Below are positions 7,279 through 19,623 of a stretch of DNA of 64,000 nt, in pieces (within the stretch, counting starts at the first letter, position 1; each line of letters starts with the position of its first letter). A program made the translations under genes and the position numbers. The stretch is taken from NCBI GenBank assembly GCA_964016885.1, contig OZ024745.1:90582001-90646000 (forward strand), written 5' to 3'. The notes beneath the pieces were generated by a model, which did no database searches, had not been told where the DNA came from, and worked only from the letters and a program-made list of their open reading frames with translations. Source of the DNA: Eledone cirrhosa (taxonomy: Eukaryota).

Positions 7279-7506
7279 TAGACATGTGTATATATATATA
7301 TATATATATATAACAAAGAAGGTGTGGTAAGATACCAGGTGGACCATAACACTCCAGAGTACTCAATACTTACGGTAGTAGAGTGGGTAGTAGGGAAGAG
7401 TCAGGACCCCGACGGCTGAGGTCTGGCCGTTTCGACAGCTAGATCCGAACTAGTTAGTTTGGATCTAGCCGTCGGGGTTTTGACTCTCTTCCCTATATAT
7501 ATATAT

Positions 7507-7909
7507 AGGGAAAAAAGATGAAATCGAAAATGCAACTGGAGTCTTTTTTTTTTATATATATATATTTATTTGGTTCCTTTACCGGTTACGCAGTTATTCT
7601 GCTTTTCAAAAGTAGAATTAAGATGGAGGGTCTGTGGTTTTTCTCACATCTGGTTGGTGTTTGAATGTTACTTCTATTTTATATGGAAAAAGGTGGCTCG
7701 AAAAACCTAGCATTTCGAGCCACTTTTTTCCATATAAAATAGAAGTAACATTCAAACACCAACCAGGTGTGAGAAAAACCACAGACCCTCCATCTCAATT
7801 CTACTTTTGAAAAGCAGAAGAACTGCGAACCTGGTAAAGGAACCAAATAAATAAATATTTTTTAAAAAAAAAGACTCCAGTTGGATTTTCGATTTCATCT
7901 TTTTTCCTT
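7507..7909. mobile_element. Fold-back element (~195-bp arms) with a decayed hammerhead in each arm
   Basis: Arms meet at ggctcgaaa-aacctagca-tttcgagcc; each arm has ctt-TTGAAAA-gcag..ctgc-G(T/A)A(A/C)-c(c/t)gg-TA-aagg; (TA)n flanks. Confidence 0.7.
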
Positions 7910-8012: not shown

Positions 8013-8049
8013 TGTATGTATGTATGTATGTATGTATGTATATGTATTT

Positions 8050-9995
8050 ATTTATTTAGGTTTGTTGGTTCACCACTGGATATAACTGGTCATTCCGTAT
8101 GGTCAACCTCGATGTAATATTATGGAGAGCACTCAACGTAATGCAACTCACCCATCTTCGTTTGTGTAGTTGGTGGTGCGACTACAGAGTAAATAACAGG
8201 AGGCTGGACTGGTGTAATTCCTTAAAAGGTTTATTATACTATGATCATTTCAATGACCGGGTTCAGTATGAATCCGGTGACATCATCAGGTATTCAAAAT
8301 ATAACAAAGAAATATAATAGAAAAAATCCATGGGGCTGAAAATCAGAGACATGAGGGCGACCGGACATTTAGCAGCTTCTACCCCTGGTCGGCCGCCCTC
8401 AAGTGCTGATTATTAAGCCTACTTATGTCCATCTGGTGAAGTGACGTAGGCTTATAGTGTAATTCCACCCCGTAAAAGACAGAGGCCAGCGATGAGGTCA
8501 GGTTACAATCAAGCTGGTCATGCGTGGTAGAAAGTGCCGCGAAAAATATTCTATCAAAGAACATATATTTTTAACAAATCTATATATAATAATATATAGT
8601 GGGCGTCTGCATGGTATAATGTATGGACAGAAATTACGATTAACGATTAGAAACGTTAAATTTATGTTTAGATTTGGAAGATGCCATTTAAGATGAAATT
8701 AGAAAAATAAGGTTTAGGTTTGAGGTTGTGAGATTTAGTTAAAGAATTTACAGAAGGAGGCTTTTATGAAAAAGTTTAAGTGTATTATAGATAGTCACGA
8801 TAAAGTTTCAGGGTAGAATATAGAGTAAGGATTAAACCCGTGCTTAGCGGTCAATAACCAGCGACGTTGCGGACCCCCGGCCAGCCCGGGGCCCAACGGC
8901 GCGTCAGCCGTTCCGAGTATTATCGTCTAGCTAAATAAATGGAAATTTATTTTTCCGAGCACTCCAGGAATGTTAACTGTCTTAAGCTTCGGGTGTGTTA
9001 GCGGGATGGCCGCCACCGTCCTCCGGCCATCGTATATACTAAACGATTACTAGTTATTCACACTGGTGTAGGATTTAGTTAAGTGCTAGTAGAAGGAGGC
9101 AAGATAAAGTTAAAAGTTATGATTAAGCCTAGAATTTAAAGGTACTGTTTGGCGGTCAATAACCGGTGTCGCGGCGGGTTCCAAGTCCGACAGAGCCCCA
9201 GGGCGAAGCAGCCGTTCCGAGTATTTTCGTTTACCGAAAGAAGGGGAAATTTATTTTTCCAAGAACTCGAGAAAGGCTGATCGACCCGAGTGCCTGGCGT
9301 GCAGTCGGGATAGCCGCCACATCCGTCGGATCATCGCGTGTACCAAACGATTATTAGTTATTCACACCTGCGATGTGAAGTTGAAAGTGGTAAAATCTGA
9401 TGAAATGTGCAAATAAACTATATTTAGTCTCCAGTTAGTCCGGGTTATATGTAGTGTGATTCCTGGGTGGGTAGGGGGAGTGAATAAAGATAAACGGATA
9501 TAAGGGTACATAGAGTAATATTCTAGGGTCGTGTGCTAATGAGCACAATGATAAGTGTATAATGAGAGTAAAGCGAGTAAATAAATACATAAATAAAACC
9601 GTAAGTAAAATACATAAATACATAAATAAAATGCAGTCATACCTAGTGTGGTGATGTAGGGAGTAAAAAGGAAGTATATAAGAACATATCGAAGAAATCA
9701 CAATACAGAGGAAATACAGATCAAGGTGCAGTAATGGGCAATATAGCACGGTTGGAGAATGCAAGGTTAAACATATAGATATAGAGGATGGAAGAGTTGG
9801 AATGGTATCAGATGAAACCTAGTGTATGTTCGAGTCTTAATTTTCAATGTGAATCCCAAAAGCCCTGAAATATAGGATAGGGAATTCAGTCAATACAATA
9901 CAGAGTATAGTAGAATATGTTGATTCTTTGAAGAATCTATGAGGTCTAACGGGGTCTGAATATTCCCAATGCATGGTCCTGGTGTGCGGTAGACA
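8050..9995 (-). mobile_element. Non-coding hammerhead-bearing element (probable PLE tail or non-autonomous PLE)
   Basis: Bounded by (TA)/(TATG) microsatellites; intact hammerhead at 8236-8293; two internal diverged GC-rich repeats; no recognisable ORF. Confidence 0.6.
8236..8293 (-). ncRNA. Type I hammerhead ribozyme, intact core
   Basis: atac-CTGATGA-tgtcaccgg..ccggtcatt-GAAA-tgatca-TA-gtat; palindromic minimal stem III. Confidence 0.8.
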
Positions 9996-9998
9996 AAG

Positions 9999-10034
<36 letters not shown>

Positions 10035-18988: not shown

Positions 18989-19623
18989 GTATACCTTCCT
19001 GCCAGATGATTGAACGTCTGAAAGTATATACTTTCCTTATGCATATTAACGGCTGAGCAGCCTAATTTTCATACCGAGTGAGTTAATCGGCCGGGCGCAT
19101 CGAAAACGATAAATGGAAAAAAAATGAAACGAAATTTCATTTCTCATTCTTAGTACGGCTGTAACTTAAATATAAGTATGTATACGTACATACATATATG
19201 TATACAGACGTACAGTAGTATGTATATATATACATACATGCACACATATATATATGTACGTATGCACACATATATATATATATGTACGTACGTTAATTCG
19301 GGATGTTTGTTTACAAACAAACCGAGCATTATAATAAATGTTCGGTAAATCCATACGTACATATATGTGTGCATGTATGTATATATATATACATACTACT
19401 GTACGTGTGTATACATATATGTATGTACGTATACATACTTATATTTAAGTAACAGCTGTACTAAGAGTGAGAAATGAAATTTCGTTTCGTTTTTTTCCAT
19501 TTATCGTTTTCGGTGCGCCCGGCCGATTAACTCACTCGATATGCAAATTAGGCTGCCCATCCGTTAATATACATAAGAAAGTATATACTTTCAGACGTTC
19601 AATCATCTGGCAGGAAGGTATAC

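Follow-up and report, generated by a model that had tools for sequence, protein, structure and literature searches.

An ORF-less, hammerhead-ended element at the locus

The 64,000-nt window of the Eledone cirrhosa genome (the whole stretch of DNA that was analysed) carries on its minus strand a copy of a dispersed element with two structured modules (Table 1). When module B was compared with the 3.0-Gb genome, at least 70 matches were obtained from the 40 of 1,455 candidates that were scored. The full unit is about 2.07 kb long, and head-to-tail junctions were seen in the flanks. Across families the unit ranges from 2.0 to 2.9 kb, and inverted truncated copies are common among the loci. The exact hammerhead pattern occurs at no fewer than 4,299 genome sites (control pattern, 1), and the exact tip pattern gave 614 genome matches (control, 0).

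Table 1. Features of the element in the window (positions of the window)
Feature	Positions	Strand	Basis and remarks
ORF-less, hammerhead-ended, Penelope-dependent element, 5′-truncated copy	8048..10001	-	parts common to all 30 fetched loci; flanks, junction, ends
Module B, predicted irregular rod of about 200 nt	9147..9348	-	MFE of the stretch is rod plus junction; covariation
Tip of module B, predicted three-way junction	9219..9268	-	hairpin 1 at 9260-9245 (loop AAUAAA); hairpin 2 at 9239-9225 (loop GUAAA)
Module A, predicted same rod	8842..9044	-	private changes in the window copy, whose MFE structure is not the family fold
Tip of module A	8915..8964	-	hairpin 1 at 8956-8941; hairpin 2 at 8935-8921 (loop CUAGA), one pair broken here
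G-poor linker and leader, within the duplicated unit	9045..9146	-	G 13% outside the rods, 27% inside
GC-rich hairpin, both sides co-change between subfamilies	8353..8400	-	read off the alignment and family H, no formal count
Minimal type I hammerhead	8236..8293	-	CUGAUGA, GAAA, palindromic helix III; predicted cut after A8240
Tail between the two preferred 3′ ends (8191, 8048)	8048..8191	-	each end joins (TA)n

No conserved ORF, RT and EN ORFs included, was found across the copies of the element or in family H (described below), and the 57-aa frame at 9837-10010 was negative in a Pfam scan. The initial annotation had named decayed protein-coding sequence as the finding that would overturn a structured RNA; a coding origin of the modules was rejected on the absence of a conserved ORF. 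This absence also makes unlikely the IRES-like role that had been suggested.

The hammerhead noted downstream on the minus strand is present, with its core at 8289 and stem I at 8293, 549 nt beyond the second module. Behind it, 38 alignments stop at 8191 and 50 at 8048-8049, some of them continuing into the next unit. These 3′ ends, 143 nt apart, are likely two reverse-transcription start sites, by analogy with the two internal start sites that account for Penelope tails in the available part of PMC11167929. According to excerpts of two further papers, Penelope pLTRs carry minimal hammerheads with the features seen here (PMC4209133), and tandems, inversions and tails are marks of Penelope elements (PMC8557442). 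Thus, the element is dispersed, non-coding and partly tandem, has two fixed (TA)n ends, and was passed through RNA of the hammerhead strand. Dependence on Penelope, as the initial annotation had proposed, is supported by the ends, the tandems and the (TA)n targets.

Several observations concern the surroundings of the modules. The GC-rich hairpin lies about 60 nt upstream of the hammerhead, its strands co-change across A/B, C, E and H, and behind it come a pyrimidine run and CAG resembling a 3′ splice site. At the TAATAA where units join head to tail, another repeat has inserted repeatedly (L009, L026, L049, L051). A long MITE-like inverted repeat at 7504-7861 adjoins the element and is the source of weak miRNA-like Rfam scores.

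Folding of the twin modules

Two diverged tandem copies had been described at this locus, and they were found at 8841-9063 (A) and 9146-9367 (B), about 71% alike; all six sequence blocks listed for them occur in both. The structured unit within each is predicted to span 9348-9147 and 9044-8842 of the minus strand. In the search with Rfam 15, no family reached its gathering score anywhere in the window, and the sole match over the modules was a chance-level one on the plus strand (E 3.2).

For the folding analysis, 135 modules of at least 190 nt were taken from 70 loci. The majority letters of 11 clusters fold into a long irregular rod that ends in a three-way junction. The folding z was -1.6 to -5.6 in eight of these clusters and near 0 in three, and -3.07 (B) and -1.95 (A) for the window copies. 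In the same eight clusters the reverse strand folds more weakly. The minus strand assigned earlier is borne out by the sense A>G copies. As sampled from 12 or more subfamilies, the predicted fold is a rod of about 200 nt with a three-way junction of two short hairpins as its tip.

The helices drawn in the initial annotation were scored on 24 natural copies, namely subfamily representatives and the window pair, with the GATG helix cut to 5 pairs where it overlaps the proposed long-range pair. As a set of 29 pairs they showed no pair with two-sided change and a score below the shuffles. The GATG..ATC hairpin needs letters present only in the two copies of the window (2/24), and 4 of the 7 pairs of the AATAACT/GGTTATT closing stem are broken in 4-6 of the 24 copies. 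Neither the TCGTTT helix nor the TGGCGG/CCGCYA pair was retained; TCGTTT and CCGCYA have other partners within the rod. Only the GGAAA/TTTCC hairpin survives. In a tree test of this older model, internal branches kept 6 and broke 17 pairs (p=0.84). Early ideas of a pseudoknot (5′ GUGUG pairings) were also dropped, as the pairs are broken in subfamilies.

Covariation in the rod

The rod model was scored on the same 24 copies. Paired cells amounted to 85.9%, and 18 of 76 pairs had two-sided change, a number of pairs reached by 20 of 500 shuffles. Cells with two-sided change numbered 65, as against 32±5 in the shuffles, none of which (0/500) reached this value, in a comparison that ignores kinship. 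Further pair types were not in excess over shuffles (432/500). RNAalifold recovered the base of the rod and the tip, not the middle.

Since covariation counts ignore relatedness, pair-keeping was followed on a tree of 132 distinct modules, from which the lineage used to draw the rod model was excluded; internal branches were those with at least three leaves. Rod pairs were kept and broken 62 and 50 times on internal branches, versus 187 and 368 times on terminal ones (55% vs 34% kept, p=1.6e-5). When the pairing partners were re-dealt, the observed score was matched in 1 of 400 trials. Compensation on internal branches was always stepwise, mostly via G-U, with no two-sided change on a single internal branch. 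A naive co-substitution screen gave scattered, unstacked pairs and was set aside.

The two arms of a module pair better than shuffled arms in all 18 representatives (z -1.1 to -5.8). The cognate arm does better than the average foreign arm in 17 of 18 rows and is the best partner of all in only 3 of 18. Comparison of the copies supports selection on the pairing of the rod, and the claim of selection on RNA structure made at the outset is borne out by the rod covariation and the tree-aware excess of kept pairs.

Conservation and sequence of the tip

The identity of the tip between lineages is 0.66-0.94 and that of the arms 0.42-0.77; in all 12 lineage pairs the tip scores above either arm. Between subfamily E (5 copies) and 7 others, the alignment windows over the tips score 0.90 and 0.85, and those over the hammerhead 0.84-0.89. 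Thus, the 50-nt tip is about as conserved as the hammerhead. The linker window 9801-9762 (0.88) is as conserved as the tip, and the remaining windows score 0.18-0.78. Because the tip is nearly invariant, with one two-sided cell in its two hairpins together, its fold rests on prediction. The comparison supports a constrained tip, modelled as a three-way junction with two hairpins.

A covariance model of the tip gave 136 matches in 86 sources, of which just two lie in the window; there was no match in 25 loci of one autonomous Penelope family. Loop 1 is AAUAAA in most B and H modules, and AAUUAA or AAUUGA in several A-type subfamilies. Loop 2 is GUAAA in B and H, and 65 of the 134 loops listed, A-type ones, fit NUNGN; its stem has 3-5 bp. 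Loci L047, L196 and L327 hold chimeric modules, in which a B-type 5′ arm is joined to an A-type tip or 3′ arm; these show recombination between modules A and B.

Deeper lineages and family H

Subfamily E is 65-70% alike to the window copy. Both arms of both of its modules have deletions, yet they re-pair to a rod. The junction stem is closed in the MFE of 6 of the 10 copies folded, and one of those copies is from another subfamily.

Family H, also ORF-less, consists of copies that are 98-100% identical with a unit of 2.92 kb (40 scored of 1,441 candidates), and was likely active recently. It possesses two B-type modules in units that are 92% alike, the product of its own recent duplication. 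Since this duplication is separate from that of A and B, two tips have been kept in different arrangements. The hammerhead and tail of family H (L244:4610-7100, L301, L263-L312) are the same, and there are several internal tandem duplications.

Further diverged modules were detected in 4 of 20 additional loci. An older lineage, K (L328:4931-5320, L333-L352; 2,126 candidates), is 65% alike in the hammerhead and tail. No module was found in 20 of its loci, though these were recovered as short 3′ fragments only.

Genomic copies of edited RNA

Among 245 copies screened (74 of H, 77 of E and 94 of A/B), two of family H have a large sense-strand A>G excess. In L359 (313-1738; G000:C1 near 27.334 Mb), 117 of 146 changes in 1,465 bases are sense A>G; in L291 (502-2906), 35 of 58 in 1,704 bases. 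In L359, A was changed at 50 of 69 sites with U as the 5′ neighbour, 55 of 95 with A, 9 of 30 with C and 3 of 33 with G. The order U>A>C>G is the preference of ADAR. L359 and L291 are thus edited RNA that was reverse-transcribed into the genome. No A>G excess was found in the older A/B family. Of 28 H loci chosen by the hammerhead, only 5 matched the module motif; thus, the editing counts rest mostly on copies selected for their similarity to module 1. In run X1, which may be the assembly's own sample, a 400-nt contig is identical to the edited stretch of L359. The sequencing runs listed with the element (three runs of one study) included no RNA run.

The A>G copies establish which strand is the RNA and that there was an RNA step; they do not establish the rod. 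Since the edited span covers the linkers too, the hyper-editing likely arose from an inverted copy rather than from the rods; an inverted repeat with hyper-edited retroviral sequences has been described (PMC12925331, in part). As for the rod itself, three of its adenosines recur as G among 94 H modules: the one in UAG in 14, that in CAG opposite C in 23, and that in AAU in 15. On a noisy 39-copy tree, these changes took 3-6 independent steps each, versus 1-2 for four linker A>G changes. Rod singletons included 0 A>G at 59 A sites (39 H copies). The recurrent G at the three adenosines gives modest support to the rod in vivo.

In such ADAR-patterned copies a retroelement has carried RNA editing back into DNA, and they offer a means to date and orient retroelements without RNA data. 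In the non-subscription papers searched, at abstract level, neither ADAR-edited Penelope copies nor the tip motif was described.

Search for a partner and for other occurrences

The autonomous family mentioned above (L197-L221), presumably of 'Hydra-type' from its motifs, is young, with copies 97-98% alike, and encodes about 720 aa with a C-terminal nuclease. Its hammerhead has a long stem II, and its 3′ UTR is long and G-poor. The element showed no similarity to the 25 loci of this family, and no RT ORF was found in the 40 continuing loci that were followed. Penelope ORFs beside some copies were considered as partners; they appear to be adjacent only because both occupy (TA)n targets. No autonomous partner was thus found among these loci. 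A published survey calls, in the passage available, only the Naiads of cephalopods inactive.

In other collections, the tip pattern had no match in viral contigs and one chance match in a bacterial genome. Five viral-contig matches to a 17-mer and 121 metagenome matches to a loose pattern were also attributed to chance (best E 0.036 over the 126 loci). An octopus repeat annotation lists, in the part available, Penelope and unknown families without ribozymes (PMC13282606). The element may be present without classification in the library of that annotation, in Dfam or in Repbase. From sequence comparison within one genome, the modules appear to be a real RNA domain, under selection and not catalogued, in an element of known type; a function is assigned to it here by inference.

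Possible function of the tip

A stalk of free sequence with a fixed tip looks like a docking site, and an RNA without an ORF must capture the enzyme of another element. We consider the chance to be about even that the tip is such a site for a protein, helping the RNA to capture a borrowed Penelope enzyme. As the docked protein, the Penelope enzyme and a host factor that leads to it are about equally likely. The element would likely be copied by a borrowed Penelope reverse transcriptase as follows. The tandem transcript would fold so that each module forms a long stalk presenting the conserved three-way junction. One or both tips would bind their partner, whether the Penelope enzyme or the host factor, and two tips would raise avidity. 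Reverse transcription would then begin in the tail behind the hammerhead. The predicted dimer of the Penelope protein (PMC11167929, in part) was counted in favour of docking, and the absence of modules from the 25 loci of one autonomous family against it. The main objection is that the tail alone may suffice: in the only Penelope element studied in vitro, according to the same partial source, the smallest template required consists of the initial 172 nt of the ORF, a region at and behind the hammerhead. All data are from one genome. This young, abundant parasite, with its defined, conserved 50-nt junction and natural variants, offers a handle on RNA recognition by Penelope-type reverse transcriptases, the closest relatives of telomerase.

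It is less probable, and on balance unlikely, that the rods only protect or route the RNA, through stability of the hammerhead-cut or circular form, export or escape from dsRNA surveillance, without enzyme capture. A long irregular duplex under selection and the encounter of the element RNA with ADAR would suit this, as would the small retrozyme circles that are predicted to be highly self-paired (PMC7229834, in part). By itself, however, it does not account for a 50-nt tip that is nearly invariant while the arms vary freely.

That the rod is a functionless relic of an old reverse-transcription fold-back, with a tip shared through recombination between copies, seems quite improbable. Inversions and chimeras are frequent in these elements, modules and linkers are equally conserved among close subfamilies, and many rod pairs are broken, 50 of them by changes on internal branches. 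Against this stand the excess of kept pairs on those branches, the re-pairing after deletions in subfamily E, and the retention of the tip between families that are 60-70% alike elsewhere.

We also regard as very unlikely a catalytic tip, either a new self-cleaving or ligating ribozyme, to which nothing in the analysis points, or a decayed type III hammerhead. The comparison used what we take to be the type III consensus (CUGANGA and GAAA core). The order stem-NUH-hairpin-7 nt-hairpin-GAAA-stem of the B and H junction resembles it, and the tip is conserved like a real hammerhead. However, CUGANGA is absent, with a CCUUCUU-like pyrimidine linker in its place, GAAA is missing in several A-type subfamilies, and there is no Rfam match. 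Two cuts inside the unit would sever the template, and no preferred copy ends at the tips were apparent by eye, without a count.

Least probable of these, the conserved 50 letters could be a DNA element or processing signal (an internal promoter or a sequestered poly(A) signal) with an incidental rod, as the tip is invariant rather than covarying and carries AAUAAA in most B and H modules, but several A-type subfamilies have AAUUAA or AAUUGA instead, a working poly(A) site would remove the reverse-transcription start, and the covarying rod has the tip precisely at its apex.

Likeness to known systems

As modelled, the tip resembles telomerase CR4/5 (PMC3592445, in part) in layout, with a linked pair of short hairpins at a three-way junction that is carried by a variable stalk, and the Penelope RT is the sister group of TERT. 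Compared with P6.1 in the same source (4-bp stem, NUNGN loop), the A-type loop 2 fits, whereas the GUAAA of B and H does not; the youngest family has GUAAA loops only, and the stems have 3-5 bp. Hairpin 1 has 5 bp in the tip versus at least 9 in CR4/5. Unlike telomerase RNA, the element is multi-copy and mobile, and no telomerase family matched in Rfam. We therefore regard the likeness as architectural only, and do not class the modelled tip there. It is doubtful, and rather a long shot, that the tip is the Penelope counterpart of the telomerase stem-terminus junction, binding and activating a telomerase-related RT in trans and duplicated by the parasite. If so, it would be the first RNA-structural link from Penelope elements to telomerase RNA, and a natural handle to load cargo RNA onto the Penelope RT.

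In Alu, the 7SL domain, folded and duplicated, is a ribosome-targeting aid of a non-autonomous element and is proposed to help to capture the RT of another. The modules have a different fold and no SRP match in Rfam; both domains are folded, duplicated and proposed for the capture of another element's RT.

With non-autonomous Penelope-like elements (e.g. MRC1, Chlamys clade; PMC8557442 and PMC4209133, both in part), the element shares the lack of an ORF, partial head-to-tail tandems, inverted truncated copies, an optional tail and (TA)n targets. The hammerhead of Penelope pLTRs is likewise minimal type I with a palindromic helix III (excerpt of PMC4209133), as predicted from sequence for Eledone. 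The tail is 143 nt here versus 30-40 there, and the available parts of the two papers mention no twin structured modules. With animal non-LTR retrozymes (PMC7229834; bioRxiv 10.64898/2026.07.22.740005; both in part), it shares non-coding tandem units with a type I hammerhead, and these retrozymes are thought to be mobilised by Penelope elements. However, the units are about 2.07 and 2.92 kb here and about 300 bp there, and the partial tandems here are mostly dispersed, unlike those of retrozymes. The retrozyme pipeline, as described in the accessible text of the preprint, was limited to tandem periods of at most 1000 bp, so that this element would escape it. By analogy, the element may work like both a non-autonomous Penelope element and an oversized retrozyme.

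Other minimal hammerhead motifs in the window, at about 19622 (+) and 24103 (+) and at three minus-strand sites near 18990, 20610 and 21045, belong to different Penelope families.
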